Shown: piece by piece, positions 1 to 35,859 of the stretch
Layout: every line of letters begins with the position of its first letter
How positions within the stretch are numbered: position 1 is the first letter of the stretch
NCBI GenBank assembly: GCA_008632985.1
Contig: QPGO01000102.1
Location: 124,001 to 188,000 of the forward strand
Origin: Psammoneis japonica
Taxonomy: Eukaryota
Direction of reading: 5' to 3'
DNA: 64,000 bases
The notes under the pieces: generated by a model
Databases searched by the model: none
What the model saw: the letters and a program-made list of their open reading frames with translations, nothing else
What the model was told of the DNA's origin: nothing
Translations under genes and position numbers: made by a program

Positions 1-71
1 GTGGTTGGAATGAAGCACAGCAGCTGGGTTGCACCGCCGAGCAGCTCCTTGGGGCCGGTTGCAAGATCGAG

Positions 72-1218
72 TTGGTGGGTGATCAGGCCACCTTTGTGAA
101 ACCGGAGGTCCTGCCTTTTTGCAGCGGCAAAAGCGAGGAGGCAGCCAAGCCCGCGGCCAAAGTGGTTGCGAAAGCAACGGCGGAAGAGGAAGAAGAAGGA
201 AAGCAATTTCCGGACCCCAACGATCCGTCATTCGACTTGTGGGACTGGGTGTTGCGGCACGAAAAATCCGATAAATTCCAGGAGTCCATGTGCCTGATGA
301 AGGATGCGCCGAACAATCCCAACCTCTGGTTCCCCGCACTGGGAGAACTGGGGTGCATCAGGAGCGACCCTGAAGCCGTCGCGAATGCTCACAGCAAACA
401 CTGCAAGTGGGTGTGGAGGTGCCGCACGGAAGTCGGCGAGAGGGGCATCCCAGACTCGACGCCGAAGAGCAACAAAGTGTTCAAGACCGCCATCGAGGCT
501 TTCGAAGCGGGGTGGTTGCTCGCACTGGTCTGTCTCGTGAAGAGAGCAAGTGCAGAAGTGTGCACATTTGGATGAGGCGCCGCGTCACTTAACCTGCGTT
601 GTTTTGCCTCGAAAAGTCCGTTCGCTCCGCAGGCCCCAAGGAGGTGGAGGTGGGCGAGCTGCGCGTGTCACAACGGAGGGGCGCAGGCATTGGTTTTTTT
701 GCCTTGTGCCAGTTCCAGAAAGGCAGCACGGTTGGAATCTACGTGGGCCCCAGGGTGCCCGGTACGACGAGGAGCCACTCGTGGTGCGACCACGACAGCA
801 AGTTTGGAGAAGACCACAGCGTGTGCTGCTCCACCATCCGTGACAGCGAGGGCCACTGTGTCACAGTGGAGCCAAAACGCTTGATTTTAGTGGTCCAGGG
901 AACAAGAGTTCCCATCCACTCTACCTCAGAATGCACTGCGTGAACGATGCCACCGAGTCGTTCAAGGACAAGAAGAAGATCAAGGCAAGCCAACACACGG
1001 ACAACAACTGCAAGTTCTACAACGACGGGTGCTTGGCAGTCACGAAGCGAATCATGCCCGGGGAGGAATTTCTCTGCAGATGCAACTTGGACGAATCGGA
1101 GAAGAAGAAGAAGAAGAGGAAGGCGACGTCGGGTGCCATGAATCGGAAGAAGAAATCGTGTCTACTCCCCAAGTCGGGGGGGAGAAGCTCTACGTCTGGC
1201 AAAATGTCTGCCATGTAG
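72..1218 (+). pseudogene. SET-domain (protein-lysine methyltransferase-like) gene, disrupted
   Basis: Frame 599-943 has 'VSQRRGAGIGFFA...KGSTVGIYVG' (SET motif I/II). After a frameshift near 900, frame 931-1218 has 'PLYLRMHCVND...NNCKF...AVTKRIMPGEEFLCRCN' (the SET NHS-like and GEEL.xxY motifs, with Tyr read as Cys). ORF 72-575 may be the N-terminal part of the same gene. Confidence 0.65.
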
Positions 1219-1328
1219 TGTGCTCTGTAAATTAGCAGCACAGTGTGTTGGTGTTTTTCAGCGAAACTGTGGCATTGGTTGGAAAGGCGTGGCCCCAATT
1301 GTGGTTCGAAAAATGGGAACGAGGAAGA

Positions 1329-1455
1329 ACAGAAAGTCGGTAAATTTACGCAAATCCAGCAAATTAGCAGGTGCCTGCACAGTCGCCTGAGCACAGAAAG
1401 TCAGTAAATTTACGCAAATTTAGCAAGTTATTTTGCACCATCACAGTCGCCTGAG
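1329..1455. repeat. Short imperfect tandem duplication (about 64-bp period)
   Basis: acagaaagtc(g/a)gtaaatttacgcaaat at 1329 and 1393; cacagtcgcctgag occurs twice. Confidence 0.7.
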
Positions 1456-2583
1456 AATGGTCTCTTCCTCTAGAGAAAGGGGGATCGAATTGTTGTTCTT
1501 GCCCACTGCAGCACTCTTCAGGTGGAGAGACATGCAAAAGAACTCGTCGTTTGAGTTTGTCCTGCTGGAGATGCAGTGGCACTTGGTGGGGTTAAAAATG
1601 ATGACATCACCAAGCCGGAGTGCAACGGAGATGCCTTCGGTGGGGAAGCAGAAGCATGCCACAATCCCGTCATTCATGGTGCAGCTGCCGGACGGAGGGA
1701 CTCCCACCACGGTGACTGCTGACAGGAAGAAGTCCTGGTCCCAATGGGCATTGAGGAAGACATTGCGCCCAGCCGCCAGAGAGGAGAAAATGCCATCTGA
1801 CCGCACCAGGGATTTCCAGTTGTGAAACTTTTTGACACGAGCGACACCCTCAAGGATGGCACAGTCCACGTGCTCATTGACAAGGTGCTCCATGCGTGAA
1901 AGAAGTCTGGTGAGGTGGTGAGTGTGTTGGTCGGCCATGCCAGGCTGCTTGCAAGAAATTGGAGTGTCCCTCGTGGCAGCCAGGCCAATCGTGGAACACT
2001 TGCTCCTGTCCGTCTCCATGAAGGTGACGCGTTGTTTGCCGCGCACAGTGGACTGGGCGGTGCAGCATTCTAGTGCTTCGAGCGCTCGGCACTGAGCAAC
2101 TAGTTCTGCTGGGTTGGGGGAGCTGAACACCACAGCAGAATGCGGCAGCAGGGTGCAGGTGTTGTCGCAGCGGCAACCGTCCAAGCCAAAGAAAGGCTTC
2201 AGATCGAGCACAGGGTCACAGACGACCAGAGGAGCCAATTCGGCAAAGTCAATGTCAGCAAGACAAGGTGGTGCAGGCTGAGTGCAGTCACCGTTATAAA
2301 CTAGAGTGCGGTCAGCTACGCAGTGTACGGAGAGACTCTCAGTGGCGCACGGTGCGAGTGGAACGAGGCCAGCAATCTTGGATGTTTTCCTGCTGGCGCG
2401 GCTGCGGATTCGCCTGCGGCTGCGGCGGGCCTTACGAAGTGGCGGTTGAGCCCTCAACACGTTCTCGTACATCCTGGTGCGCATTGACGATGCGGTGTTC
2501 GCAGAGAACGTGTGTGCGAACTTGCCGGTAAATGTTCCGCTGCTTGACACTGTCGACGTGTTCCAGTCCCAGGTGACGCACAA
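1441..2583 (-). CDS. 2OG-Fe(II) dioxygenase-like protein with TET/JBP-type motif layout (TA-scarred, possibly dead)
   Basis: 'RNVFLNAHWDQDF' (HxD at 1738-1746), then 'FCFPTEGISVALRLGDVIIFNPTKCHCISSR' (distal His at about 1576), as in double-stranded beta-helix dioxygenases. The canonical R-x-S-x-V-x-Y strand is not clearly present. True start uncertain. Confidence 0.55.
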   Translation of the reverse strand: MCVTWDWNTSTVSSSGTFTGKFAHTFSANTASSMRTRMYENVLRAQPPLRKARRSRRRIRSRASRKTSKIAGLVPLAPCATESLSVHCVADRTLVYNGDCTQPAPPCLADIDFAELAPLVVCDPVLDLKPFFGLDGCRCDNTCTLLPHSAVVFSSPNPAELVAQCRALEALECCTAQSTVRGKQRVTFMETDRSKCSTIGLAATRDTPISCKQPGMADQHTHHLTRLLSRMEHLVNEHVDCAILEGVARVKKFHNWKSLVRSDGIFSSLAAGRNVFLNAHWDQDFFLSAVTVVGVPPSGSCTMNDGIVACFCFPTEGISVALRLGDVIIFNPTKCHCISSRTNSNDEFFCMSLHLKSAAVGKNNNSIPLSLEEETILRRL

Positions 2584-3131
2584 AACGACAATCGGATTTT
2601 GAATATAATTTATGTATGTTTTAGTGTATAGAGCATTTTAATAAAAATACTTAGACGGATTGACTTTTATAGGCTTCTAGAGTATGAACATTTAAATAGT
2701 TTTTTGAGGGGTATTCAAATCCTCATAGGATATGTATCATAAACTTCCTCAGTAGACTCAATACTGATTGTACGTCAGTAGATTTATACTGAGATTTTTT
2801 TGTAGGTAGAAAACCTACCAAGTAGCATCGTAGAAAGATATATTTAGGTAACATCCAAATAACGGCAATATTTTCGCCGAAAATCATCCGTTGTGTTACG
2901 AATCTTTTAACGCAATGAAAAACATAGATAGCACAATAACAATGATATTGCAACACTCACACGAGTCTTGTTAGTGTTGCAAAACATTTATATTTGAATA
3001 AATCTATACTTTTGGTGGTGAAAGTTCGATCGTAAGTTAGGGACCGCGCAAAAATCGCGCAAATGTCGTTTTTGTGCACGATTTGGTTCACGTGCGGCTG
3101 GAACACGTCTGTCACTGTCGTCTCAACAGTG

Positions 3132-3295
3132 CCCAAAGCAGAACTCTGTCGACAGGGACCGGCGGACTCCAGGGGAGTGGGGTCAAAACCCAATCGAGAG
3201 ATGTGTCTGCTTTCCGTTGCCTCAAGAGCACCCAAAGCAAAACTCTGTTGACAGGGACCGGCGGACTCCAGGGGAGTGGGGTCGAAACCTAATCG
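3132..3295. repeat. Direct repeat, two ~65-bp copies 99 bp apart
   Basis: cccaaagca(g/a)aactctgt(c/t)gacagggaccggcggactccaggggagtggggtc.aaacc.aatcg at 3132 and 3231. Confidence 0.85.
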
Positions 3296-3880
3296 CAAGA
3301 AGCATTTGCTTGTTGTCGGGCTGCGAGCTGCACATCCCAAACCCCCACACTGTCGAGACCGGCTGTAACTCGATCGCGACAAGTGCTTGTCGTTGGCAGG
3401 ACGACGCAGCGAGGCACGAGGCAGTTGCGACATGGTGTGTCTCAATTTGAAATGTGTTTCAAAACACAATGACGGAAGTGTTGTCACGTTGTTTTTGTCT
3501 CCGCGGAGGGAGGATCATCCCATGGCAATCTCAGTGCGAGTTCTCGCGTAGAAGTGCGTTGCGTGCCGTGCCAGCTCGTGCGTTTGAATTGCACGGACAT
3601 GCAAGTGCGGCGATGATGAGAAGCAGTCCGAGATTCAAAACAAATTTTACCACCTAAAGGCGTCTTGTTGTTTCAACGCATCTACATGTCTGTTTAAAAT
3701 GACTTCACACGTCGCTCCATGCGCAGGCAGAGGTGGCACGCCGCGTTTGAAAATTTCGCGCGCGCAGAGGGCGCGACGGCAATTTTACGCATTCTGCGCA
3801 CGTCACAGTTTGGTTTGGAAACGCGACATCTGGTCAAACCCGCTGCAAGCAAGGTTGATGTTGCCACAAGGTTGGGTGCG

Positions 3881-4750
3881 ATGAACCATCGTTGCAGAAG
3901 TGTTAGGGAGTTTTGTCTTCAAACGGCTCCGGACTCCGCGCTCCAGAGCAGGCGTGTCTCCGGAGACGGAAGCGGATCTTCGCACGGCGGCGAAGTTGGC
4001 TTCGCTTTGAGCAGCGAAGTGTTTTTGAACGAACGCCTTCTTGGCGTGAATCACACCTGCGACACATCTGTCGACATGGGCGGGGGAGTTGCCGGACCCA
4101 GCATCGGGCTCAAGTTACTTCGTCGCCGTTGCACCGTGGTGAGCATCGAGGCCAACCACGATCGTCACCAAGAGGCTGTGCGTTGGGCTCATCGTGCTGG
4201 CCTTCGCTCGAACGGCGGGCCAGAGTTGATCAACAAGTCATTCTTGGACAAGAGGCTGGCTCCTTTGTGGAAAAAGAAAGGACTCAAGGTGTTCTTCAAC
4301 AACTGCAACTCCCGCATGGTCGACGACAAGAACACACAGCAGAAGGCAGAGGCGATGCTTTCGAAGTTGTGACGTGCTGGGACCGTGGTGGTGGCACCAG
4401 ATCCGCTGTTCGCGTCGCACGCGGGAGAGTGGATGCACGAGTCCTTCACGGTGGATTGCCATGATGGCGACTTTTTGTGGCACAGCGGAGACGTGAAACA
4501 TCTCGTCTTCCACAAGTGCACCAAGAAAGAGGAGACTTCTCAGTCAACCAGCCAGCACATGCGACGTCCCACTCCGACACACTTGGAACGGAAGCATTTG
4601 CCCGTCGCGAAACAGCCAATTTTACTTAAGAACTCAACTGAACTGTTTTTTTACTGTCACTGCACTGGACGTCACACGCCAGTTGCTCTGCTCAATTTGC
4701 CATTGCTTCGCGGTGACGTAAAGTTGTTGTCGGAGATGGTGCACACTTGA
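3881..4750 (+). pseudogene. DOT1-like class I SAM-dependent methyltransferase with one in-frame TGA (4370-4372)
   Basis: Motif order matches DOT1: 'HGGEV' (YGE-like), 'DTSVDMGGGVA' (motif I), 'VVSIEAN' (post-I acidic), 'INKSFLD', 'VFFNN', then after the stop 'AGTVVVAPDPL'. ORFs 3719-4372 and 4385-4750 share a frame. Confidence 0.6.
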
Positions 4751-5711
4751 AGAGACAGAGGAAAGCTGAGTTGCAATCGACACTTGGTTTACCAAACATT
4801 TGCAAATTTACACTGCACCGGCCAAAAAAAGAAACAACTTGGTCTTCGTCGCTGTCCTGAAGCACCAAGTCGTCATCGACGTTCAGGTCAACTTCGCAGT
4901 TGAGCTCGACATCATCATCGGCCTCTTCTCCAGCTTCTTCCACCGGAGCTCCAATGAGACGACAGAGTTCCACAGGCAACGACCCCTCGCAGAAGCAACT
5001 GTGAAGCAAGTTCTTGTTTTGGGCGCACCAACCGATGTGAAACTGACCACCTTCCTTCTGAAGCTCGGCAAGCGCCGCCTCGTTGCCGATCACTTCGGAC
5101 CAAACAGCATCCTTCATCCAGAAGAAGTCGTCTTCAACGAAGACCTCGGTGTTGTTCTCAGGGTCATCGTTCAGCTGCTTTGCAATGCACTTCCCGAGGC
5201 CGCGCACCCCAGCATCGGTTGGGACTTCTTCGAGGAAGATGAAGAAGAGACGCACGGCGCAGTTCTTGGCGTTCGTCTGCAACTCGCCCTCGTGAACCCA
5301 CCTGCCAGCGTAAGGGTGGAATCCGACTTGAACCGCCCACGGAGTCCTGCTGCGAAGGTCATCAAACAGAACCTTCTCCGACCAAACATTGGTTGAAAGG
5401 GGATTCTTGGCTTGGAGACGAAAAACGACGCCTTTCTTGCGGCCGACAGTGACAGTGGCGCAGCGCAGGAGGGCGACCTTGTCGGAATGGCTGCCATCGT
5501 CAGAACCGGCGGATTTGGAAAGCTTGAACCCGTGCTTGGCAAGGCAGTCTTCCGGTTTAAGGTCGTTGTCGGTCAAGCCATTGGTCTTGCGGGGCGGACT
5601 TAGTTTCTTCAACAGAGCATCAGAAAACTTCGTCTTTGCCTTCTTCTGTTTGGTTTCAGCGACTTTGGCTTTCGCAGCCGGGGAGGTCGTTGTGTTTCTT
5701 TTGCGTGCCAT
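4692..5711 (-). CDS. Hypothetical protein (basic N-terminus, globular core, acidic tail)
   Basis: Long open frame (ORF 4692-5891) with a likely ATG at 'MARKRNTTT'. Protein-like composition; no family recognised. Confidence 0.5.
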   Translation of the reverse strand: MARKRNTTTSPAAKAKVAETKQKKAKTKFSDALLKKLSPPRKTNGLTDNDLKPEDCLAKHGFKLSKSAGSDDGSHSDKVALLRCATVTVGRKKGVVFRLQAKNPLSTNVWSEKVLFDDLRSRTPWAVQVGFHPYAGRWVHEGELQTNAKNCAVRLFFIFLEEVPTDAGVRGLGKCIAKQLNDDPENNTEVFVEDDFFWMKDAVWSEVIGNEAALAELQKEGGQFHIGWCAQNKNLLHSCFCEGSLPVELCRLIGAPVEEAGEEADDDVELNCEVDLNVDDDLVLQDSDEDQVVSFFGRCSVNLQMFGKPSVDCNSAFLCLFKCAPSPTTTLRHREAMAN

Positions 5712-6261
5712 CGAATCAGTCGGAGAGAAATTGTGGGAACAAAAAGTGCGATCGTTCAGAAGTGCCAAGAAAGACCCAGCAGAGCTGCGTGCATCACACC
5801 AAGGAGAACTGGCAACGTCAGCAACCAGATTCAAACACGTCGAACTGCAACAAGGTAACCTTCCAGGTGTCAGCACTTGCAAGTGGTGCATGGATTCAAT
5901 TTGAACAAAACAGACACAAGGATCAGAGCACGCAAAGTCGCACTAAGTTTGCTGAAAATGCGTAAAATCACGTGCAATTCCGTCCGTGCTTCGTGTGCAT
6001 TTCAGCCGTTGCTGCCGCGCGGCCATCGCGCACGAAATCTAGTCGCCAAACGGTCGATGCCATCGCTGTCACTACATGCTGTACCTGGCAGTTAGCTGAG
6101 GTGGGCCCATCACCCATTTGGAGGATTCGCGCGCACTTTGGAAACACGAATGATGTCAATCGCATTGTCATTGCCACACGACTGACTCAGCTGCCCCGCC
6201 ACTCGTCAAAGCATGATTCTACGGAATTTACGTAAAGCTGCGCCCACCACCAAGATTGCCG

Positions 6262-6365
6262 AAACAACTTGAACAAGATCCGAATCTTGCCCCATGGAAT
6301 GTTCAGAGCAGATGGTCGAAACAACTTGAACAAGATCCAAATCTTGTCCCATGGGATGTTCAACG
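6262..6365. repeat. 57-bp-period tandem duplication (NNLNKI.IL.HGMF x2)
   Basis: aaacaacttgaacaagatcc.aatcttg.cccatgg.atgttca occurs at about 6262 and 6319. Confidence 0.8.
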
Positions 6366-6517
6366 TCGACGAAACTAAGCAGGACATCGTGCGTCTGGTG
6401 CGAAGAAGGACGTGGGAGGAACGCACACGTCACTCTTCCGTCGAGGTGAAAGAGGCACACTTTCGTCTCACTTTTTTGTGACAGAACCTTTGCGCAAAGG
6501 GAAACGAAAAGCATCCA

Positions 6518-7200
6518 ACTGCGGTGATTGGGCCACACCGATCGCAGTTCTCAGTTCTCACAGTGACCTGGCAACGCAGGTTGTGAGATGACGCACAAGC
6601 TCAGCTGCGGTGACTGGGTGACACCAGTCGCAGCTCTCACAGAGACCTGGTCGCACAGGTTGTGAGAACACGACACAACGCTGCGGTGATCGGACAGCAC
6701 TGACGCAGTTCGTCAAGCAACTAATTCACTTGGCTGCGGTGACTGGACGACACCAGTCGCAGCTCTCACAGCGACCTGATTGCACAGGTTGTGAGCAAAC
6801 AACACAGCGCTGCACCTCGTAATGCAGGTTGTGAGATGACGCACAAGCTCAGCTGCGGTGACTGGACGACACCAGTCGCAGCTCTCACAGAGACCTGATC
6901 GCACAGGTTGTGAGAACACGACACAACACTGCGGTGATCGGGTGGCACCGACGCAGTTCGTCAAGCAACTGGTTGGCTCGGCTGCGGTGACTGGACAGCA
7001 CCAGTCGCAGCACTCACAGCGACCTGATTGCACAGGTTGTGAGAAGACGACACAGCGCTGTGGTGAACGGGCAGCACCGACGCGGTTCGTTGATCAACTG
7101 GACAGAACCACTGCGGTGACTGGACGACACCAGTCGCAGTGCTGCAGGTGGCGAGAAAACACACATCGCTGTGGTGATTGGATGGCACCGATCGCAGCTT
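6518..7200. repeat. Tandem array (129-bp period) built from ~10 copies of a 28-29-bp imperfect palindrome plus a second hairpin motif
   Basis: ctg(c/t)ggtga...cacc..tcgcag-type units at about 6519, 6605, 6681, 6734, 6853, 6929, 6982, 7058, 7111 and 7169. Spacing 6605-6734, 6853-6982 and 6982-7111 is 129 bp. Confidence 0.85.
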
Positions 7201-7284
7201 CACGGTGATCGCACCGAAAAAACAACTGTTTTTGCTGAGTGACTTCTTGAAATTTGTCGAGTCAAAGCATCAGCTTAAATTAAA

Positions 7285-10200
7285 ATGGACGAGGCCAACT
7301 CCCGTGTTTGCAATGCAATCAATGGAAAGTTTGAGATGCTTTGTCTGCACAGAGACGGAGAATTTAGACCACACGCATGTTTGGTCTGTGGCGTTCTGCT
7401 GAAACCTAGAGAAGTTTGCTGCTTGCCACTCGAAACATTGGAATCAGCAAGAAACTTGCTCACCCCTTCAGACTGGAACAGCGCATCTGATCGTCTCAAG
7501 TCCTGCTGCACTGTAGAGCATGAAGATGCTGATTGGATCAAAGACCTGCTGCTTTCTCCCCGCGCCCAATGCGCAGTGCAGGAAGACAGACGACGTGTCG
7601 ACGGATTCACTTGCTGCAGCGAATGCTGAAGAAGCCTGGGAAGAGCCATCATGCCAATGTGCGCGACAGCGAACAACTGCTGTTTCGGCACCCCGCCGCA
7701 CGAACTGTTGTCCCCAACCGAGGTGGAATTGGCAATGCTCACACCAGTGAAAACATGCGGGTGCTGCTTCAGTTGCCTTGGCGGCAAACAGAAGAAGCTT
7801 CAGGGAAGTCTGACATGCTACAAAGTCAAGGTGCAAAGCATCATAAGAACTGTTGTGCACTTCGACGTGCTGAATTTACATCAGAATGTGATTTGCACTG
7901 ATGACTGGAAAGATGACTCCGGAGCAAAGACAACTTGCGCGTTCAAAGAACAGAATTAGGACGCACTGCATGCCAAGGGCGATGGAATGGCTGTTGCACC
8001 ACAACCAAGAGTGGGTGTGCCAACAGACAAATCTAGACGAAGTTGGGCGTGATCTGCGGAATCCTGCACTTGTCGACAGCACCGGCGAAGAAGAAGGAGA
8101 AAATGCAAATGTTGAGACCTCAGAGTCATTTCACATTTGCTTTCCTGATGGAACCATGTCTCCTGCGACCGGTGGTCAGTGCAACCTGGACTGCTTCAAA
8201 GATCTTGTGCACGAAGCTGCTGCCAACGGATTTGATTTAGAGGTGCAAGCACAGTTGTCTGAAGAATCTGCGAGTGATTTCAAAGGCAACAACTTCATCA
8301 ATGCGTGTCTGCTGCAGTTTCCTTTTGGCAGAGGAGGAATCAATGAGACGAGAATGAAGAAAGACGGAAGTCTTGCAGACAGCACCAACCTTGCACACTG
8401 TGCCAACCACTTGGCACGGATTTCCCAGCCTCACTTCCACGAGCAGCTCTTCGTGTTAACATGCCACAACTTGACAATGAAGCAAAGGATGCTGCAGAGC
8501 ACAGGGTGGAAAGTCAGGGACAAGAATCAGGCTGCACAGTTTGCAAACGAACTGACAGTGGACGATGTGGACAGAGCTGTTTGTGATCGCAACTTGGGTG
8601 AGAGAAGAGATTGTGGACTCGGGCACCACTTTTTGCGCGCACTCGACGTTGCATCTGCATCTCTGCCACACAGCAACGAAGCGGCAAAGAAAATGAGGAG
8701 AAACGCCGAAACTCATCAGCATCATTTTGGTCAGGGTGGCATTTTCTTGACCGTCAGTCCGGACGATGCAAATTCGTTTCTTGTGCAACTGCACTCGGGT
8801 GTCATCCTGGACCCAAACGAAGACGTGACACAACTGACGGACGAAATTCTTGCCAGCAGGGCTGAGCAACGTAATGAGCTGCGTCTAAAGTTTCCCAGTC
8901 TAACAGCCTTTGCATTCGAGTGCTTGTTTGACATTGCAACGGAAGAGGCAGTGGGTTGGGATCTGAGTGCCAACCAACCAAGAGAAAACTTTAACTTCTG
9001 CGTTGGCAGGCCAGCCGCATTTTTAGCCGCAGTTGAGGAGCAGGGACGTCTGACAGTGCACGGACACATGCAGATCTGGTTCGCATCGATCAACAATGCA
9101 AGAGAGAAACTGCATTCACCAATGAGACAGATCCGACGCGAAGGTGCTGATTGCCTTGCCAACACAGTTCAGAAGATCTGCAGCACGGAATTAATCTGTG
9201 GCGAGGACTTCAGCACCAACGCGTTGCGTGAAGCATTCGATCATGACTGCACAGCACCAAAAATGTGTCGCACCTCTCCAAAAGCAGCAGACGACCAACA
9301 GCTAAGAAACCTGAGGCATGAAGACGGCCAGCAGTCGAAGAACGGAATGTTTGCTTGTTGTCGTCACTGCACCAAGTGCTGGACAAACGTCGAGTTTGTA
9401 GAAAGCTTTTTGCAGTCACGGCACCGTGTGCCTGGCCTGACTCGCCATCCAGATGACCATGCAAAGCAACTAAAAGCAATGTGTGTACAACACCAGCGAA
9501 GTGGTCCGCAAGGGACAATGGAGGCATGCATGCCGGACGCAGCTTACAACCATCACATGCACGTTACGAAGTCGTGTTTTCCCAAATGCGCAGAGTTACG
9601 TAAAATGCGCAAAAAAACCCCACACGAGGAACTGGACGCGCTGTCAAGGAAAAGGAAACGAGAGGAGCTCAAACTGGGTGACTGCCGTCACAGGCAACCA
9701 GCTGCTTCGTGTCCAAATAATTTGGCAAGGAACGCAGATGACACTCAGATAAAGTGGTTCAGCTGGGATGGGACTTTTACGCATCGGTGCGTGAAGGAAG
9801 TTGTTCCGAAGAGGAGAAAGTGCGATGCTTTTCAAAACGTGCCGTGCCCTGCAACAAGCAGATCAAAACTGACATGCAACACAAACATTGCTTTGTTGAT
9901 GCCTGGACCGTCTGCTCAACACACGATCAAGCACATCCTAAAAGATGCCCAGAAAGATGACACTGCATCGTACGACAAAGTGCTTCGAACTGCGAACAGG
10001 ACAGCGACGGAATTACGGAAACACGCATCTGATGCATCGGAAGCAATCAGACGTCTCACATGGGGTGCTCACTCGCATGACAAGACGAACGTCATTGGAC
10101 CACCACTTGCGTCTTACATGACAAGGAACAGAAGCCGTTTCATCGAATCTCATTTGACCGCATGGTGCCCCTTGAAAGACATTGTCAGCACACTAGAAAG

Positions 10201-13018
10201 AGACGAAGTGTCTGCGACTGTAGCCCATTTTGGCGACACACCGTTCTTCCAATGCCAGGCCTTGCACCACCTGTGTCGTCCAACAGCACTGGAGAATCTT
10301 GGTCCGTTTGCGTTTTTCAGTGAACACGAAGTTCTTCGCAACACAAGGAAAAACGAACACGGCATGATGATGTTCGACAACAGAGCGCACAGGCACCCGT
10401 CTTGTGATTCAACGAAGAACAAGTTTCTTCAAGGTGTCAGACAGCGACAGCAACCGCGATTGTTAAAAGTGCTTCAGTGTGATTTTCCTGATGCAGCCAA
10501 GTTTGGCAGTTGCCTTGTAAATCCGCAGCAACCAACAACGCCAGACAAAGAATTGCACTGCAAGTTGGCATTGGCCTTGTTTGCGCCTTGCAGAACAATG
10601 ATGGAACTCAAACCAATGACCCGTGCATGCCTGCGTGAATTCCAACTCTCTGCAGCAGCCGGTGTTGTTGCAGAGGAAAACTTGAACTTCTTGCAGAACC
10701 TGCAGGATGCCAAGTCCAACTGCCTTCGTCTCAAAAGCACATCTGACGATCTGCAAAGAAAGACAGAGCAATTTAGACCTGCTGACGTTGCGTTTGACTG
10801 TTGCGAAAGTGACGAGGAAGAAGGTCTTTCAGGCGCCGTTCAGGGTCAACTGCTGGATGCACTCTTGGAAGAAATGGCAGAGCAGCCAGAAGACGATGAC
10901 ATTGGGTTGAGCGACCAAGCAGTTGTTCCTGCGCATTTGAGCGGCAAACGTGCAAGACAGAAAGGTTCGCACATGGGTGGTTGCAAATGCTTGGCAGACA
11001 TGCACACTGACCCACCAAACGAGGAAAGCCAGGTCAATGAACGACAACTTTTTGAGAATCTAGAGGGCGGCGATGACACCGACGAGGAAGACCAGAATGA
11101 AGGAGTGCAACAACACATCCACAGCAGACCACTGTCAAGAGACGACATTGTTCGAGTGATGCTGACTAGAACGCAAAGAACAAGAAGGTCGTTTGAGGAC
11201 ATGACAGGTTTGGAAGAACACGTCGATGTACGTCAAGCAAACGGATCTGCAGCAAGTGTCATAGACTGGGCTAGGAAAGCAAGACTGGATGGGCAACAGC
11301 AGCGTGCCTTTGAAATTCTGGCAGGAACCTTTGTGCTCACTTGCTGTCAAGACGCTCTTCAAGACGAGACGTCATGCAATGGACTCAATGGGAGAAACAG
11401 CAGACATGAATTCACAACAAACCTTCGCCAATTGAAGAAACTCGTGGAAGTGCAAAGACGTAGAACGTTGCAACTTGTGTGTTTTTTACATGGTGCAGGT
11501 GGAAGTGGCAAATCAACCACAATGGACCTCGTCGTGGAATGCGGAAGAGAGCATTGCTCGCTTGTTGAGCAGCCGTTCACAACAAGCACAATCAGAGTGA
11601 CTGCACTGACCGGAGTGGCTGCCACTGTTCTCAAAGGGGACACAATCCACCGAGTTGCACACCTCATGAGAAGAAAGCAAACAACTGAAGAGCAAATTGA
11701 AGCATGGTCCGACACGAGACTTTTGGTGGTAGACGAGATTTCTTTTGCAAGCAAGAGAGAACTAGAAAAACTCCATGAGAATTTGACAGTGTTGAAGAGC
11801 GAATTAAGCAAGCCGTGCGGTGGCATGAACATTGTTTTCGCAGGTGACCTCAGGCAACTAGAACCAGTCGGAAAAGGAGTGAAACCACTGTGCAAAGATG
11901 TGTGTCCCGAGTTTCACGAGTGGATCAACTGCCACATGGAACTTCATGGTGTGCACAGGTTTAAAGACGATCCATCATGGGGAAAACTGCTCAAGAGATT
12001 CCGCACTGGCAAGATTGCAGTTGACGATGTGGAGCACATCAACGAACGAGCAGTTCAGAATGAAGATGATCTGCCCAGTGACCTCCGCCATGCCACGTAC
12101 GCAAACAAGGACAGAGATGCAATTGACACTGGCCCATTTGAAAAAAGAGTAAAAACACTGCATGGAAGAGATGGAGACGTCCTTGACTCAATGTTGATTT
12201 TCAGTGACGACTTGCAGGTGCAGAATGGCACGAGACTCTGCCAACCATTTCCGGTTTGCAACAGCTTCTGGAACAACTGTGGTGAAGGAGACGTTGTCAT
12301 GCAATCAGGAAGAATGGATCCAGTCTTACGAATTTACAGAGGATGCAGAGTCATGACACCTTTCAACGAAAATGCAGCAAACGGTCAAGCAAACAGAACG
12401 CAAGCCACTGTTGACAAGGTCGTTCTCAAACCAGGACAGGAACCAAGACCAGTGACTTTAGACAACAACATTGGCGTTCCTGCTGTGCTTGCCAGTCAGG
12501 TAGACCACGTTGCATTGGAACACTGCAACAAAAGCATCGACCCCGCGAAGTTTTTAGTTGAGCCAAAAACAAATGCTTTCAGGGCTTGCATCGCCAAGCC
12601 CAGCCTGGCTTTAGAAGAAGGCGACAAACAAAGGCACACTTTCCAACTGAAGGCAACCCAGCTGCCGTTTGTCATCAACAATGCCACTGCAGGGCACAAA
12701 CTGCAAGGGAGTGGAGCCCCGCAGTTGTTTGTACACTCTTGGAGCTGCACTCAGAATTGGGTGCATGTTGTGCTCTCCAGAGTAAAGACCAGAGAAGGGC
12801 TGTTCATGCGAAAGCCACTGAGCAAGGACCTGCGAAAATGCAAGGTCCCAGAAGGCTACGAAGCCTTGACAAGACTCATGAAGGAGAGAAGCGCCGCGCA
12901 TTTTTCTCAGCAACAGTGCGCAGAAACATCAATGCAGTGCGCAAACATTGGATTAGGATGCTCAACCACTGCACAACCATTTGGCGACCCCAACCGTAAA
13001 AATGCGGAAATTTTGTAA
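7285..13018 (+). pseudogene. Helitron-type Rep/helicase (DUF6570-like N-terminus, HUH Rep, PIF1 helicase), TA-scarred
   Basis: N-terminal 'CLVCG' and 'ANNCCFGTPPHELLSPTEVELAML' in interrupted frames 7285-7959. The 1705-aa ORF 7901-13018 has Rep motif 1 'FLTVSPDD', motif 2 'VEEQGRLTVHGHMQIW' and motif 3 'HTIKHILK' (YxxKY expected). Helicase motifs: 'HGAGGSGKS', 'VVDEIS', 'FAGDLRQLEPV', 'HRFKDD', 'AGHKLQG', 'HVVLSRVK'. Confidence 0.9.
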
Positions 13019-13083
13019 AATGAAATGTTTCGATTAGATCAGCACATTGCGCAGAAATCTGCACATGCGTCACACAACGTTGA

Positions 13084-13554
13084 ATGGATTTTAACCAACA
13101 AACCAAGAAACGCGAACGCAACCGTCACAGAAAACGCAGCAACAGAGAAAACATGGATTTGCAACAACAAACAAAGAAGGCAGACGAGCCAAAGAAAACT
13201 GGTGAGGACAACAAAAAGGTGCAGACACATGCGGAACTTCTTCAGTCATTGATGAATGAGGAAGACGAAGAGGAGATCACCTTGGAAGAAGCAAGAGCGG
13301 CGTTTGACCTTGCTTCAGGAAATTTTGATGTCACTTCTGCACTTGTGCAAGACAACACGACAGTGGACAGTCATCATGTGGAAACAACGGTCACGCCCAA
13401 GGATGATTCAACCATGGAGGAGCTAAAGGCAGCACATGCAGCGGCGATTCCACAGCGGTCGGGGAGATTTTTCACCGAGGAGGAGATGGCGGAGCAGGAG
13501 AAGGAGCAAGCAAAGTCCCTTCAGAAGAAGCATGGCCAGAAAGAATGGAATTGA
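13084..13554 (+). CDS. Small acidic hypothetical protein
   Basis: 156-aa ATG-initiated ORF immediately downstream of RepHel, in a block where stop codons are depleted, so weak evidence. Confidence 0.3.
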   Translation: MDFNQQTKKRERNRHRKRSNRENMDLQQQTKKADEPKKTGEDNKKVQTHAELLQSLMNEEDEEEITLEEARAAFDLASGNFDVTSALVQDNTTVDSHHVETTVTPKDDSTMEELKAAHAAAIPQRSGRFFTEEEMAEQEKEQAKSLQKKHGQKEWN

Positions 13555-14496
13555 GCAAATTGCAAACAACTGTTTGGCAAAGACAACCGCATCAATGCGT
13601 GAAATGCATGCACATGGACTTTCACTTAAGCCGCCGCGGATTGAGCATGGCCACAAATGAGGACTGGCCATTTGGCAAAGAAACTGCAACAATGCGTAAA
13701 TTTCGTACATTTCCACATTCACTTAATCCAACGCAGCTTGCCTCAGACAACATCAACATGCACAACTGGACAACATCAACACACACAGACAGCCTCATGA
13801 AACCTCACAGAAGACAGAACGGTCAGAAGCAAAACAACCAGCACCACGCACTAACGCATGTCAGTCATGTCGCGTGGGTCGCGCAAAAGCGCGCACCGAA
13901 ACGACCGTCATGTGTCACAACCAATTCGAACGCCCGGCGCAAAATGCAGCAAAATGATTGGTGCAGGCAATCGTCATGGCTTTTTTTTCTGACAGCAGCG
14001 AGGGCGGCAATCCAAAATCTTTCGGCTTCAGACTTCGATCTAGAGAGTTCCACCTAAAAGAGGAGGAACCAATTGTTGGTGCTTGCCTTTGACAGAAAAA
14101 ACGCGCGTCAGTCGCCTGTTTCCTCTCCAGCGTCTTTTGGTGCAAAAAATGCTTGGGCTTTGTGTGCGATTTCAGAAAAAAAGATGAGGTTTGCTCTGAA
14201 AATGCGACGGAGGCGCATGGTTGCATGGAATGCTGCAGAAGCGTGAGACAACAATGGCGCACTGAAGCCCTGCCTGCATCGGTGTTTGGATTGGTCTGTC
14301 CCCTTGACAACACCTCTGCAGTGCCTTGCTGCAGTTCATAGAGTGGGGCCCCACCTGTGTGCTCAGTCTACGAACAGACACAGCACAGGGTGCCGCGCGC
14401 ACTGTGTTGCCCAAACTCATCATTGTCCACAAGAACCACGGCTTTGGAAAAGAATTGCATGCCGCGCATCAACCAAAGTGACTCCAGAGAGGGAAT

Positions 14497-15395
14497 TCAA
14501 AGTGCTTCACTTTTTTGTTTTTGATTCTCAGTGTGAGATGGCTTGATTGGAGAAGGCTTTTCCTTGAGGAAGTGGCAAATCAAGTCAGGCTCTTTTCGCG
14601 TGTGCGCCAACACCTTTGCCCACAAAGCATCAGGGACCCCAGACTTTTGCAACAAGGAACTTTCTTCCTTTTTGCAACAATGACAATCCTCAATTTCAGC
14701 ACATCCTCTCTCTCCAACAGTGCGACCCAGAGAATTGACACTTGTTGTTGTGTTTTTTCCTTTGGTGCGCGAGCCATTGTTGCTTTCAATCTGGCACCAC
14801 CAAACTGATTCTCCAGGATGTCGAAACATTTCATCATGTGATTCTTTTGCAACATCTTTCCAGAAGCTCTGGTGCCTTTGATGCCAAATCAATTGCCCCA
14901 GAGTTGCAATGTCTTGGCTCTCTTGTTCTGGGCAAGGACTTTCCCTGTGGCTCTGGCGCCCTCATCTCCCAAAAGATTCTTGATGAGACAAACACACACA
15001 ACTGTGTCATTCTGGGTGAGTCCTTCAAAAAGCTTGTGTGCACCATCATCTTCAATGTCAGTGCCACTCAGAGCCAAACTTCTGATCACATGGTTTGTTT
15101 TCAACATTTCTCCAATGTGCTTTGCGCCCTCATCGCCAATCTGACGATTGCGATCCTCAAGGAAGAGCACATTGACTGAAGTGTTGTTCCTCAATGCCTC
15201 ACACAGAAACCTGATGCCAGTTGGGCCAATGTTGGTGTCAATTGACACCAACCATCTTGGACATGGCAGATGTGGGATCACTTGGGGCAACTGGCACATC
15301 TCTTCATCTCTGACGTTTTTTCCAACGAGTTCAATCCACTCAACATTTGGAACTCTCATGGCCAAGATGTCTTGTAAATCCCTTGAAGATGACAT
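14497..15395 (-). pseudogene. Degenerate copy of the RNI-like LRR gene
   Basis: Aligns to 21266-22153 and 31404-32294 ('DLQDILAMRVPNVE...EPDLICHFLKEKP'). Premature TGA at 14889 derives from CGA; frameshifts; Tyr read as Cys/His. Confidence 0.9.
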
Positions 15396-16829
15396 TTTGT
15401 CAGAGGTGTCAATGACAAGAAAATGAGCAAGCACCTTAAGAGGACAGCAGACAACAATGATGGTGAGTGTGTCATGTGACTCAGTGACTTTCCATGGTCT
15501 GCATCAAGAGTTTGGAGTTTTCGAGGGAAATGGCATGGGCAGTGGGCTGAGTGGTTTGAGCACAGTGCACCCACTCAATCTGCAATCCACGATGACACAA
15601 CGACAATTGGACACTTTGCTGGGTGGCCTTGTCTCATTGTCTTGGCACAAACAGAGTGACCACAAAGTGCTCTGTTCTCTAGAATGATGAGCATCACTTT
15701 GCCACTCTTCAAGAGAAGAACATCTGTGGCATTCTTGGGCTTTGGTTGGATGTTCATTTTGCTGGAAAGCCAACAGGACACCTGGCAGCACCCCCATGCA
15801 AGCACTGCAAAGTGCCCCACCAGCATCATCTTCATCATGTCTTGCACCTCTCTGACCAACTTGTTGACAGCACTTGCCACCCACAAATGGTCTGGTGCAG
15901 CAAGCAGAGAGCGCGCACCATCTCACACCACATTTGACCACCATCAACAACAACAATGCTTGCTCCTGTCTTTGCAGCTTGCAATCTGGCTCTTGATGAG
16001 CAGACAAAGCTGGGGTCATTTTGTTTGCAGCCCACCCAGATGCTTGTGCAATGCAGAGTGACAATGAATCAAGGCACAGGGGCTCACATTTTGAGCTTTG
16101 CCATGGCCGCCCTCTGACAATTGTGAGGCCGAGCAAGGGCATGCAGAGAAAAAGAAAGCCAGAAGTGCTTTTGGCTTTTTTGGGAAGTTGAGCTGAAAGA
16201 AAGTGGTTCTTTGGATGACTTGGAGTTGATGAGGGTTGATGGTCATTGGACAAGGTCAGCCAGCCTGCACCTCACAAGCTGAGCCCACTGTCTCTTGAGG
16301 CATGAGAAAAGAAGGTGTGGTCTGTCTCATGTGGCCCAAGAAGAGACACACATGTTGTCAACTTTCTAGCTCCACTCAACCTCAGTGTGGCAGCAAGCCA
16401 GCTGGAGATTGGTGCACAATGTGCAACCAGCCAAGATCAAGATTGTTGATCTGTCCATGAGTGCAGGAGTGGACACCTCAAACAAAGACTGCACCATGCC
16501 CAGATGGGGGGATGTGAAGCTCAGAACAGAGAATGCAACAGCTGACATCCTCAGCCCAAAGGATGTGAAAAGCAAGCAGTGTGACATGTGACAACAGAGT
16601 GGAAGGGGCAAGTTCTGGCTGTTGGGCAAGAAGACTGGCAAGCAAGTCATGGCATTCAGAGTTGACAATGTTGGGCTGCACATGTTTGCACCAAGCCAGC
16701 AACTCTTTCACTGCACAAAAGAGCTTTGAGCAAGTGAGCTGCATGTGAGCATGCTGTCAAAGAAGGAGAAGAAGAAGAAGAAGAACAGTCCCAAGCAACT
16801 TGCACAAATGGAAATGTTGTGAAAGTGAC

Positions 16830-18070
16830 ACCCACTCAATCTGTGATCCACGATGGTGTGCTGACAACAACAACAACCACGCAAGTGAGAACAGTGAGCC
16901 ACAAAACAACACATCAGCTGGAAGCAACTCTTTGCCACAATGGCCAACTGCAGCCACCAAAAATGACATTTCCCAGTTGGTCAAAGAGGCTGGAGCCTTG
17001 TTGGGTGCAGCAATCACCCAGGTGCCTTGCTTGCCCCCTCTTCAAGCACAAAAACAGCCCCCCCCCCCCCCCTCCCAAGGCACATGTGCAGCTCTTTTGC
17101 TGCAACAGCCCTGGCTCTTCTTTCAAATTTGTTTTTTCTGTGGCTTTCACATTTCTGCTCTCTCAGCTCAGAGGAGCATGTCTTGTCAAGAGCCAGCAGC
17201 GGTGTCTCCTGGGTTGTGTTGACAACATTGATGAGGTTGCTCTTTCTGCCCATGTTGAGAGCACAATGGGTCCCATGCTGAGATCTCTTGGGGTCAATTG
17301 CATCATGGACCATTTGGCTCTTGTGGGAAATGGGTTGATGAGCCAAACATGTGATGGCTTGTTCAAGTCAGTTCAGCACATGTGATGGCCTTGGCTGGCT
17401 CTGATCAAAAGTCTTGCAAAAGGCTTGTCTGGGAGGAGTGCAAGCAATGCACAGCCATGGTGAGCAGGACCTTTCAAGAACCTGGCTTGCCTGAAAAAAA
17501 TTGTGCCATGGGCTCAACAAGCAAGTGTCTTGCAGCCAAGCAGTTGCAGACTCAAAAAGCAGTGTGGAAATGCTGGCAAGCCATCACATTGCAGAGAATC
17601 AGCTTGGTCTGCATGTGCTGTGTGGCATGTCTGGCTGCACCAAGCACTTGCCAAGAGTCCTCCAGCCAAGTTTGTCTTAAGGTCTGACTTGTTGGACAGA
17701 GATGGGGCTGTTGCAAAAGTTGCATCTCTGCTTTGTCAAGCCACCCAAGATGAGTTTTTTGAAGTGTGGCATCAACAAGTGGTTGCTGACACCTCAGCAG
17801 ACAGGTGGCACACGTGCTTCCCCTCCAGCACCAGCCAAAAGTCTTCTGAGCTTGCCAACCATGCATGTGTGCAGTCCCATTTGTGTGTGCCAGTGTCTGG
17901 AGTGTGAGCATCCCATGAGGTCTGGCCTTCTTCACAGCCCACAGCACCAGACAAAAAACTCCAGTTTGGTTGGTCCAGGTTGATTTTCAAGCCTCGGAGG
18001 AACACAGCAGCAAGGTCCATGGGTGTGGCATGGAAACCAAAAAGTCAGCTCAAGGTGCTGGTGCATGTGC
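16830..18070 (+). pseudogene. Degenerate copy of the 5' UTR and 5' coding region of the HEATR5-like gene
   Basis: 16962 aatgacatttcccagttggtcaaagaggctggagccttgttgggtgcagcaatcacc aligns to the start of 31126(-). Homology continues to about 'FVLKSALEDKA...DKFPEVRQ'. Confidence 0.85.
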
Positions 18071-18721
18071 AGAAGGCAGAGCTTGTGACCATTTGCAAAA
18101 CAAGTGCCAAGAGCAGCACCTGGCAAAAGATCAAGTGGCACCAACAGACATGGCTGAAGAGCATTTTTTGCACTCTGCTGTCAGGTTGCAGAACTGGGCT
18201 TCATGGCACCTGTGCCAATGTCATTCACCTCAACTTGGCATCATCACCAACAGGTGACACCAACCCCAGCTGATTCTTTTGCCTTTCTGCACCACACCAT
18301 CTGTTGCAACGGAAGTGTGTGCGGGTCAACCTGCGGCACTGTTGTTGGCACAATGGCGCAACACCAGTGCTCTGGACTGGGTCCAGTTTTTTCAACACCA
18401 CTGGAGCTTGCTGCAGCTGTGGCCTTTGCATTGCTGCTGGCACTCACAGCAGCCAGAGCCCTGGTGCTGTTGGCACTCACAGAGGTTTTTGCACAAAACT
18501 GGCACCGGGAGTGGTTGGAGCCTTCTTGATGCTGCTGGCACTTGTTGTGGAGGTTGGAGAGCCTTCACATTGCTGTCATGGTTGGGGCCTTTGTGCTGTT
18601 GACCTTTGCTGCAGTTGAAGCCTTCTTTGTGTTGCTGGAACTTGCAACAGTTGGAGCTTTTGAGCCACTGGTGCTCATGGCTGTGGCATTTGTGGCAGTC
18701 AAAGCCTTGGAGCTTCTGGCA

Positions 18722-19440
18722 TTTGCAGAGGTTAGAAACTTTTTGCACAGATGGCACTCACTGGGGGTGGATTTCTGCTGTTGGTTGTCCCGCCACATCT
18801 TCCTCTGCTTTGGAGAAATGATCATGACAAACCACAAAGGAGCAACAAACCAGAAGCAAACCACCAAGCTTTCTTGAGCAAAATGACAAGAATGACCACA
18901 AGTTGCCCAGCCCACCAGTGTTTTGTCAACTTCTTTGAAAAAAATCCTTGTCCAGTGCCCACACAATGAAGAGCAATGCTGCACCATTGTTCAATTGTTT
19001 TTCTCTCCTTGCATGTTGGTGAGTGCAGTGCTGGCACATCACAGTTGTAAAGTGGCGCCAACAGACATGGCTGAAAAGAGCATTTTTTGCACTCTGCTGT
19101 CGGGTTGCAGAACTGGGCTTCATGGCACCTGCAGAGGTTAGAAACTTTTTGCACAGATGGCATTCATCAGGGGTGGATTTCTGCCATTGGTTGTCCCACC
19201 ACATCTTCCTCTGCTTTGGAGAAATGATCATGACAAACCACAAAGGAGCAACAAACCAGAAGCAAACCACCAAGCTTTCTTAAGCAAAATGACAAGAATG
19301 ACCACAAGTTGCCCAGCCCACCAGTGTTTTGTTGACTTCTTTGAAAAAAGATCCTTGTCTAGTGCCCACACAATGAAGAGCAATGCTGTGCCATTGTTCA
19401 ATCATTTTTCTCTCCTTGCATGTTGAGTGCAGTGCTGGTG
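18722..19440. repeat. Direct repeat, ~310-bp copies at a 406-bp period; 19048-19130 also repeats 18130-18212
   Basis: gcagaggttagaaactttttgcacagatggca... at 18725 and 19131, near-identical through ...tgcagtgctgg. Confidence 0.9.
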
Positions 19441-19454
19441 CATCGCAGCTGTCA

Positions 19455-19610
19455 GTTGTTGTTGTTGTTGTTGTTGTTGGTGTTGGTGTTGGTGGTGTTG
19501 GTGGTGGTGGTGTCAGCCATTGTTGTTGCTGTTGTTGCTGTTGTTGTTGTTGCCGCTGTTGTTGTTGTTGTTGTTGTGTTGGTCGTGGTGTTGTTGCTGT
19601 TGTTGTTTCA
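19455..19610. repeat. Compound (GTT)n/(GGT)n microsatellite
   Basis: Direct reading of the sequence. Confidence 0.95.
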
Positions 19611-21265: not shown

Positions 21266-22153
21266 TCAAAGCGCCTCACGTTTTCGCTTGCGATTTTCCG
21301 TGGTGGCCGTCTTGATTAGAGAAGGCTTTTCTTTGAGGAAGTGGTAAATCAAATCAGGCTCTTTTCGCATGCGCCCCAACACATTTGCCCACAAGGCATC
21401 AGGGACCAAAGACTTCTGCAACAAGGAGCTTCCTTTCTTTTTGCAATCACGATAGTCCTCGATTTCGGTACACGCTTTCTCTCCAACAATGTCACCCAAA
21501 GAAAAACGAAGTATTGCTGTGTTTTCCTTTAGTGAATGAGCTAAAGCTCTCTCTCCAGCATCACCAAAACGATTTGGCCAGACGCTGAGGCATTTTATTG
21601 TGCGATTCTTTTGCAACATCTTTCCAAAAGCTCTGGCACCTTCATCGCCGAATATATTACTGAATATATCAAATATCTCAATCGTCCTATTTTGGGCAAG
21701 GCCTTTCCCGATGGCTCTGGCGCCTTCATCTCCTATGCGATTCCCTTTCAGATCAACGCTTCTAACCGTGTCGTTCTGGGCAAGTCCCTTCGAAAGCTCT
21801 TGTGCTCCATCGTCTCCAATTTTATTGACAGATAGAGACAAACATTTGATTGTATGATTTGTTTTCAACATTTCTCCAATGTGTTTTGCGCCCTCGTTGC
21901 CAATCTGATTGAAGTCAAGCCGGACAGTCTCGACTGAAGTATTGTTCCTCAACGCCTCACACAGACACTTGATGCCAGTCGGGCCAATGTTGTTCAAAGA
22001 TAACACCAATTCTCTTAGCCGTGGCAGAGAAGGGATCACTCGGCACAATTGGCGCATCTCTTCATCTCCGATGTTTTTGTCACATAGTTCAATCGACTCA
22101 ACATTCGGAACTCTCATCGCCAATATCTCTTGTAAATCATTTGAAAATGCCAT
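21266..22153 (-). CDS. RNI-like (LRR_6 / NLRC3-like) leucine-rich repeat protein, 295 aa
   Basis: 28-residue repeats 'L.L..N.IGDEGA..I...L..N.TI' and the C-terminal 'LWANVL...PDLIYHFLKEKP'. Confidence 0.9.
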   Translation of the reverse strand: MAFSNDLQEILAMRVPNVESIELCDKNIGDEEMRQLCRVIPSLPRLRELVLSLNNIGPTGIKCLCEALRNNTSVETVRLDFNQIGNEGAKHIGEMLKTNHTIKCLSLSVNKIGDDGAQELSKGLAQNDTVRSVDLKGNRIGDEGARAIGKGLAQNRTIEIFDIFSNIFGDEGARAFGKMLQKNRTIKCLSVWPNRFGDAGERALAHSLKENTAILRFSLGDIVGEKACTEIEDYRDCKKKGSSLLQKSLVPDALWANVLGRMRKEPDLIYHFLKEKPSLIKTATTENRKRKREAL

Positions 22154-35750: not shown

Positions 35751-35859
35751 CTGGGGTCTGCCTGGTTCTCTTGTTGCTGTGTGCAGGAGGAGGGGGGGGG
35801 GGGGGGGGGGGGGAATGGTGAGAGCACCTCATTCTCACACAGATGCAAGGATTCTGGGT

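Follow-up and report, generated by a model that had tools for sequence, protein, structure and literature searches.

The RepHel gene of the window copy

The 64,000-nucleotide stretch of the diatom Psammoneis japonica analyzed here (the window; GenBank assembly GCA_008632985.1, contig QPGO01000102.1, positions 124,001 to 188,000) begins inside a copy of a Helitron, a DNA transposon whose gene RepHel encodes a fused Rep and helicase protein. The element is a Helitron by its HUH Rep domain, its fused PIF1/SF1 helicase and its interspersed copies with defined ends. A 901-bp probe gave 41 matches in the host genome, and the window copy was compared with 33 other near-full copies and six partial or divergent ones. 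Upstream DNA was compared for 19 copies plus the window copy's own neighbor; the 5′ end is common to 17 of these 20 upstream loci and the 3′ end (14072) to 31 sequences. The element, its RepHel gene and the sites within it are as follows.

1–14072, forward strand: Helitron copy, recognized by shared copy ends; ~14.0 kb without a nested miniature inverted-repeat transposable element (MITE), its 5′ end ~520 bp before the window (contig C103 near 123,480)
7285–12937, forward strand: family RepHel gene (~1884 codons: DUF6570, HUH Rep, PIF1 helicase), broken in the window copy as judged by copy comparison
7627–7629, forward strand: premature TGA from CGA through CpG decay (copies: CGA 24, TGA 3, CAA 3, CGG 1)
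7892–7894, forward strand: extra T (frameshift) in the window copy only, absent from 31 other copies spanning the site
7901–13018, forward strand: open reading frame (ORF) of 1705 amino acids, a 5′-truncated, 3′-extended RepHel fragment with Pfam matches to Helitron_like_N and PIF1
9059–9067, forward strand: HUH motif (H-G-H), intact by homolog alignment
9920–9934, forward strand: Rep motif 3, with CAC (His) in place of both catalytic Tyr codons, by copy and homolog comparison
12764–12766, forward strand: helicase motif VI, where CAT (His) has replaced the Tyr codon and the following LSR is retained, by copy and homolog comparison
12935–12937, forward strand: family stop TAG changed to CAG, with a 27-codon read-through to 13018 (copies: TAG 17, CAG 11, TGG 3)

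The sequence-only reading had taken the ORF at 7901–13018 to be intact-looking. Comparison with the other copies contradicts this, given the CGA>TGA change at 7627, the extra T near 7893 and the read-through to 13018. The start ATG at 7285 is kept in 30 of the 31 copies with letters there, and the stop TAG at 12935 in 17 copies. The window ORF is without ~205 N-terminal codons including DUF6570, which sits upstream in another frame, and the Tyr-intact homolog P0001, which aligns over residues ~8–1863 in other copies, does so only over 209–1838 in the window copy. The extra T may be a real lesion or an assembly error; it is missing from two contigs of sequencing run X1, which may be other copies.

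The scarcity of Tyr and the excess of Cys and His that had been noticed from the letters alone are real. The 1705 residues include six Tyr (0.35%, all TAC), 66 Cys (3.9%) and 73 His (4.3%), and the observed/expected (o/e) ratio of TpA in the ORF is 0.18. In 67 RepHel homologs, collected as matches to residues 150–800 of the window ORF, Tyr makes up 2.4–5.3%, Cys 1.9–3.6% and His 1.9–4.0%; even at the lowest homolog Tyr rate, the chance of six or fewer Tyr is 5e-12. The ORF retains Pfam matches to Helitron_like_N (E 1e-9, above cut-off) and PIF1 (PF05970, E 6e-15). One homolog, P0067, was dropped from the alignment, and among the 66 aligned, the HUH motif residues H387 and H389 of the window ORF are His in 64 at both positions. 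Motif 3 columns 674 and 678 are each Tyr in 65 of 66 homologs, where the window copy has His, as claimed, and motif VI column 1622 is Tyr in 94% of 51 homologs, so that the window's HVVLSR does stand in place of YV.LSR. At the 32 columns where 50% or more of the homologs have Tyr, the window ORF has Cys in 12, His in 11, Tyr in five and Phe in four.

Motif 3 was then read in 34 copies. Its first codon is TGC in 19, CAC in 14 and TGT in one; its second is CAC in 21, TGC in 11 and TAC in two. No copy retains both Tyr, and the first is lost in 34/34. Because CAC and TGC are reciprocal between copies, two copies keep TAC at 9932 and the homologs have Tyr, the His codons at 9920 and 9932 are former Tyr codons. 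Helraiser, a bat Helitron, no longer transposes when Y727 or Y731 is mutated, and its cleavage is abolished by Y731F (PMC4778049); with those mutants as the guide, His or Cys substitutions not being among them, the window transposase would be dead. The window copy, His/His at motif 3, is thus probably a dead descendant and not an active autonomous Helitron. A divergent subfamily (L064, L065) likewise has Cys/His at motif 3. An intact master copy was not found among the 41 DNA matches, the 41 protein matches or the 25 of 189 candidates scored with P0001, in an assembly that may be incomplete.

Erasure of TpA across copies and domains

Over the 34 copies, 416 columns were classed as ancestral TA; their observations are TG in 5483, CA in 4862, TA in 2795 and CG in 49, and ~79% of the inferred ancestral TpA has been lost, on both strands. 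CpG decay runs beside this at a lower level, with 15% lost at 468 CG columns (85% of observations keep CG), so that TA changes stand to CG changes at ~5 to 1. Transversions amount to 0.10% and C>T at NCA to only 0.12–0.2%. The rate of A>G per copy-site is 54% at TAC, 47% at TAT, 28% at TAG and 26% at TAA, a pyrimidine (Y) 3′ of the A doubling the hazard (1.8 vs 0.9). A weak A>G signal follows the same 3′-pyrimidine rule at AAY (1.6–2.6%) and CAY/GAY (0.7–1.2%), with 0.13–0.39% at NAR (R, purine) contexts lacking a 5′ T; it looks as if it came from one enzyme with relaxed 5′ specificity. Copies L062, L055, L052 and L048 were left out of the context re-estimate, L062, L055 and L048 out of the strand test, and L062 and L055 out of the correlation of TA survival with CG loss across copies (rho –0.76, n=32).

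Where a TA-class column reads His or Cys, the residue most frequent among homologs is Tyr in 28 of 48 cases, against 3 of 87 for other His/Cys columns, and for this reason we take the ancestor to have been TA and not CG. TA hits are largely independent copy by copy: agreement in TG/CA between copies has a standard deviation of 0.039 vs 0.030 when shuffled, and only one of 561 pairs, at 0.91, exceeds 0.75. The four transition classes recur at 88 of 89 listed places in contigs of run X1, possibly the source sample. That TpA has been erased in this family we regard as nearly certain. Processive single-strand editing was ruled out, there being no same-strand runs at any distance (r at most 0.023).

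It had been argued that TA loss cannot create a stop and removes many, and both halves hold. No sense codon becomes a stop through T>C or A>G at TpA; among 35 stops gained in the copies, none came from the TA process and 25 from CGA>TGA. Conversely, of the 31 copies whose codon at 12935 can be read cleanly, 14 have CAG or TGG in place of TAG. No near-complete copy (0/26) is free of both stops and frameshifts, 10 having no gained stop and five no frameshift; none stays open because CpG decay and indels act in parallel, and some of the 1-bp indels may be assembly errors. The further proposal that the process silences Tyr-dependent elements stands for the catalytic Tyr residues, which are lost, and not as a specific effect. 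The window copy carries ~147 TA-driven missense changes, of which 59 are Tyr to Cys/His out of 66 inferred Tyr. Six of its 12 changes at strongly conserved columns (at least 90% in the homologs as well as in the family yardstick) are at Tyr. On these counts the process is a general missense loading, not one specific to Tyr-dependent elements.

Within the window, erased DNA lies in blocks, and the Helitron holds a nested insertion.

2555–3109, strand not assigned: nested MITE-like insertion of 555 bp with imperfect terminal inverted repeats and a 4-bp target duplication, absent from other Helitron copies
14073–21000, strand not assigned: flanking block of greater age, nearly stripped of TA and CG, with a sharp end near 21,000 (0–2 TA per 250 bp vs 5–21 beyond)

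The erased blocks end sharply near 21,000, 35,250 and 40,500, and TA o/e is 0.04–0.22 in element ORFs vs 0.51–0.64 in seven host ORFs of the window. A leucine-rich repeat (LRR) paralog within the first block (14300–15500) has 28 of 36 TAs changed to TG/CA and has lost CG too; paralogs outside the blocks (21266–22153 and 31326–32294), 86.5% identical over 1 kb, are not erased. Another block, at 35250–40500, has likewise lost nearly all TA and CG and is sharply bounded.

At the ends of the Helitron, the survival of TA follows the flank. In the first 100 bp of the element, 24 of 25 observations retain TA where the flank is TA-rich (five copies) and 7 of 49 where it is TA-poor (10 copies); 50–100 bp from the 3′ end, the figures are 26/43 vs 4/32, and in the last 50 bp TA is mostly kept in both groups. 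Spread of erasure into the flanks was ruled out, since TA-rich flanks show no TA drop toward the junction.

The nested MITE retains 52 of 55 family TA sites inside the erased Helitron. In 40 MITE copies, scored out of 308 candidates and picked by likeness to an unmutated copy, so that heavily hit copies are under-counted, the TAs lost of 55 number 0–6 in 28 copies and 16–44 in 12, with none between. Private changes of other kinds are similar in the lightly and heavily hit groups (median 3 vs 2, p 0.75), the heavily hit copies carry 377 TA changes to 14 CG changes, and young copies at 97–99% identity are barely hit. The bimodality could be due to mutation pulses or to two insertion ages under a fast clock. 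All 40 MITE copies (L090–L129) have a TA-poor flank on at least one side, which suggests that MITEs prefer to insert into erased blocks or survive only there.

Ends, accessory genes and relatives

The Helitron termini read TAAGG...CCAA, and a hairpin is predicted near the 3′ end (stem ~14047–14070). The Helitron1 variant has 5′-TC and CTRR-3′ termini, which the window family does not share. No target duplication is seen at the Helitron copies; A precedes the 5′ end in 16 of 17 loci and T follows the 3′ end in most, and these junction bases may or may not belong to the element. Sequence past the 3′ end is common to L032, L033, L035, L036 and L038, to L041 and L063, and to L031 and L045; such shared flanks may reflect an end variant that reaches further, a repeat favored as target, or segmental copies. 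At L047/L050 (contig C238), Helitron copies stand in tandem, one of the two truncated. Imperfect internal repeats of ~120–130 bp occupy 6560–7200, just 5′ of the RepHel gene, in most copies.

The accessory set 5′ of RepHel comprises SET-like, TET-like and DOT1-like genes and two unknown genes.

576–1217, forward strand: SET-domain-like gene, erased copy (Pfam SET E 0.01–0.08 in 5/5 copies scanned, below cut-off)
1441–3514, reverse strand: TET/JBP-like 2-oxoglutarate (2OG)-Fe(II) dioxygenase gene, split by the MITE (HxD...H invariant in 15/15 aligned)
3719–4747, forward strand: class I S-adenosylmethionine methyltransferase-like gene, DOT1-like, a lead only (atlas matches 0.89–0.91 to methyltransferase and DOT1 clusters)
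4692–5891, reverse strand: unknown accessory gene, kept 5′ of RepHel in relatives (tblastn E 1e-11 to 5e-37 to L135, L140 and L162)

A SET-like gene also lies 5′ of RepHel in the TA-intact relatives L140 and L162. For the dioxygenase, a predicted model (predicted local distance difference test, pLDDT, 71) has its best match in CcTet (E 1e-7), followed by CMD1; Pfam Tet_JBP gave E 0.06–0.2 in 2 of 14 homologs, below cut-off, and a PDB sequence search with the dioxygenase alignment returned no useful match. The HxD...H triad and a modeled fold closest to TET/JBP place the gene in the TET/JBP-like class. The DOT1-like gene had no methyltransferase Pfam match in the four copies scanned (4/4). Together, the SET-, TET- and DOT1-like genes at 576–4747 are a possible anti-silencing kit in a diatom transposon.

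Relatives were drawn from 74 metagenomic loci, mostly short, in which the TET-like gene was not found. Of the 22 loci spanning motif 3, 20 are Tyr/Tyr, and TA o/e lies below 0.15 in 4/74. One locus, L141, runs for 1871 codons without a stop and with two Tyr. It reads Cys/His at motif 3, is 44% identical to the window ORF and matches DUF6570, Helitron_like_N and PIF1 in Pfam above cut-off; it is a clean case of a stop-free, Tyr-poor RepHel in another organism. The idea that TA loss leaves deceptively open frames, which annotation would call functional, therefore finds its example in L141, the window ORF itself being a fragment. An open copy like L141 was not found in the host genome in the P0001 search (25 of 189 candidates scored), where it should have ranked high. 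TA-erased Helitron relatives lie on the metagenome contigs, all of other organisms, L141:2077–7689, L181, L185 and L189, and L189 has a sharp border between TA-rich and TA-free DNA.

Proposed deamination, rival accounts and known systems

With moderate confidence, we read the locus as a broken diatom Helitron RepHel gene in which TA was changed to TG or CA copy by copy, probably by a host adenine deaminase acting on silenced DNA. As the copies suggest, the hits would have come after insertion, as many separate events, inside chromatin-like domains that fade 100–200 bp from unmutated DNA and possibly in pulses. Adenine would be deaminated to inosine in silenced DNA and fixed as G at replication, and what guides the deaminase may be silent chromatin, probably CG-methylated, which would also drive the slower CpG decay. 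Removal of the catalytic Tyr would, by analogy with Helraiser, leave the transposase inactive. The kind of process is known from one preprint, on TpA hypermutation of integrated DNA of nucleocytoplasmic large DNA viruses and virophages in Bigelowiella natans (Mettrop et al., bioRxiv 10.64898/2026.01.13.699255); de novo T:A>C:G changes at TpA occur there in only some lines, and ADAT-type deamination is proposed. Off-target A>G changes made by engineered TadA8e fall at TA across the genome (PMC13225742). Adenine deamination is favored because of the dinucleotide specificity with its graded context, the spectrum and proposal from B. natans, and the TA bias of TadA8e.

Several observations weigh against this account. 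The ancestral TA class was inferred from the copies themselves. The copies share weak structure (14 pairs at 0.70–0.75, the one at 0.91, and a few shared transversions), so that some TA hits may be older than a later round of copying. In the edge test, several of the 3′ flanks are common to more than one copy. TA survival tracks CG loss across Helitron copies, and heavily hit MITEs lost more CG (14/300) than the others (5/700), so that two insertion ages under a fast clock, and not pulses, could account for the MITE bimodality. An adenine lesion and a thymine lesion would leave an identical pattern, and that the process is an adaptive defense is something we infer. A MafB19-deaminase search of the host genome gave five loci, all like ordinary housekeeping deaminases and none diagnostic; we take them to be an organellar TadA-like enzyme, two dCMP-deaminase-like enzymes, a fusion of deaminase and 2OG-Fe oxygenase, and an ADAT2-like enzyme. 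The fusion (L133:319–1791, reverse strand), a host gene in which a DIOX_N/2OG-Fe(II) oxygenase is joined with a zinc deaminase domain, probably serves nucleotide metabolism and is a deaminase candidate all the same.

A fuller version, in which diatoms and further microbial eukaryotes have a natural DNA adenine base editor that acts on silenced chromatin as an inverse of fungal repeat-induced point mutation (RIP), killing transposons through a missense load that erases Tyr but leaves long frames open, with the TET-, SET- and DOT1-like genes as Helitron counter-measures to the chromatin marks by which the editor is guided, we put forward only tentatively.

It is unlikely that the TA changes are a by-product of CpG decay, made by polymerase-eta-like error-prone repair (A>G at WA; W, A or T) at T:G mismatches in CG-methylated repeats. 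Such repair would fit AAY as the second most mutated context, the parallel loss of TA and CG across copies and the CG-poverty of the erased blocks. The hazard, however, is ~1.8 at TAY vs ~0.02 at AAY, a roughly 70–110-fold difference, and the WA bias of polymerase eta is only few-fold; TA changes also outnumber CG changes in the Helitron and in heavily hit MITEs by the ratios given above, and strand-coordinated clusters were not seen.

We give little credence to a thymine lesion, in which a TET/JBP-type dioxygenase (host or transposon-borne) or a misfiring methyltransferase would alter T in RTA, which would then pair with G. TET/JBP enzymes oxidize thymine, T>C at R-T-A is the same signature from the opposite strand, and a TET-like dioxygenase gene, with CcTet and CMD1 as matches of its modeled product, is part of the Helitron family. 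However, the carried gene is itself erased in all copies viewed, it was not found in the mostly short metagenomic loci, and unrelated elements and a host LRR paralog are also hit; transposon TET genes have, moreover, been proposed to counter silencing, not to cause it (PMC12730594).

Doubtful, too, is a non-adaptive process, with an off-target tRNA-editing or other enzyme acting on compact chromatin and the copies dying by CpG stops, indels and silencing. The absence of any near-complete copy free of stops and frameshifts, the 25 CGA>TGA stops and the persistence of young unmutated MITE copies in erased blocks are in keeping with it, whereas the spared host genes, the sharp domain edges and the line-restricted activity in B. 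natans suggest regulation, and the first motif 3 Tyr is lost in every copy when 10/26 have no gained stop.

An alternative genetic code, RNA editing, GC-biased gene conversion, CpG decay of Arg codons or an assembly artefact is very improbable: CG also decays to TG/CA, so that CAC/TGC could in principle stem from CGC, and the many 1-bp indels suggest assembly noise, but the Arg CGC origin is ruled out by homologs that have Tyr, not Arg, and by separate column classes (the CG class keeps CG at 85%, the TA class is almost never CG), the alternative code by Tyr use of 0.5–3.8% in the seven host ORFs, while editing that restored Tyr would have to be C>U in one copy and G>A in another, gene conversion is expected to be neither TA-specific nor CG-removing, and the run X1 contigs repeat the transition classes.

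The adenine deaminase account has its closest parallel in B. natans (10.64898/2026.01.13.699255). In both, T:A>C:G at TpA gives TpG or CpA according to strand, on both strands, and foreign, mobile or silent DNA is hit with host DNA spared, although here one LRR paralog in an erased block is hit as well; uneven activity and TpA-poor coding sequences of transposon domains are also noted in the preprint. That system concerns a chlorarachniophyte and two viral regions, with mild long-term depletion (rho 0.45) and mutations measured de novo; its 231 mutations, at TpA, may be too few to show a signal like the low-level one at AAY, CAY and GAY that accompanies the dominant TpA here. The diatom case differs in its multicopy DNA transposons, ~79% saturation, 3′-pyrimidine rule, end-sparing and parallel CpG decay. 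The preprint's main text makes no mention of tyrosine, stop codons, diatoms or Helitrons. Added here are the 34-copy test of the Tyr and stop claims, the flank-dependent end-sparing, the MITE series, the clean case elsewhere and the chromatin-modifying genes. A description of TpA erasure in diatoms was not found in a literature search of titles and abstract openings, most subscription literature lying outside it.

Fungal RIP changes C:G to T:A, mostly at CpA, and creates TpA and stops. The diatom process resembles it in that dinucleotide-specific transitions reach saturation in repeats, on both strands and in each copy separately. It differs in destroying TpA and in making only missense, silent and stop-loss changes; 119 CAA/CAG/TGG codons here would be open to RIP, and the low C>T at NCA given above sets the process apart from RIP, C:G>T:A at CpA/TpG being what is lacking. 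It works like an inverse RIP. Set beside the homology trigger of RIP, what is seen here is that similar LRR paralogs are unerased, a third within the block is erased, end-sparing follows the flank, and the young MITE copies at 97–99% identity are barely hit.

The element shares with Helraiser (PMC4778049) the HUH motif, the two-Tyr motif 3 (in homologs), the PIF1/SF1 helicase, the 3′ hairpin and the lack of target duplication; it differs in that both Tyr are His here, the ends are not TC...CTAG, and four or five accessory genes lie upstream. DNA transposons carrying TET/JBP genes, Helitrons included, are known in fungi (PMC12730594, a paper whose main text does not mention diatoms or stramenopiles), and the literature reports of TET-bearing Helitrons that we found concern fungi only. 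The window family resembles these in its TET-like dioxygenase gene, with CcTet as best structural match, and is unlike them in that the gene stands beside SET-like and DOT1-like genes. The TadA-derived editors share A>G / T>C changes preferring TA, but are laboratory-evolved enzymes (PMC13225742).

If a natural adenine deaminase does act at TAY in genomic DNA, it would join RIP as a second kind of mutational genome defense and be the natural equivalent of engineered adenine base editors. This idea is open to direct test through the context rule, the 100–200 bp edge and the MITE series. Annotation has to reckon with dead genes among open frames that are poor in Tyr, rich in Cys/His and well matched in Pfam, L141 being a clear case, and transposon ages taken from raw divergence are inflated several-fold. 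The chromatin-modifying genes on the Helitron suggest an arms race that is open to assay. Apart from the Helitron, silicon-transporter matches are many in the host genome (best E 2e-208), and C38:226311–230342 holds three such repeats in one open frame of 1511 amino acids.

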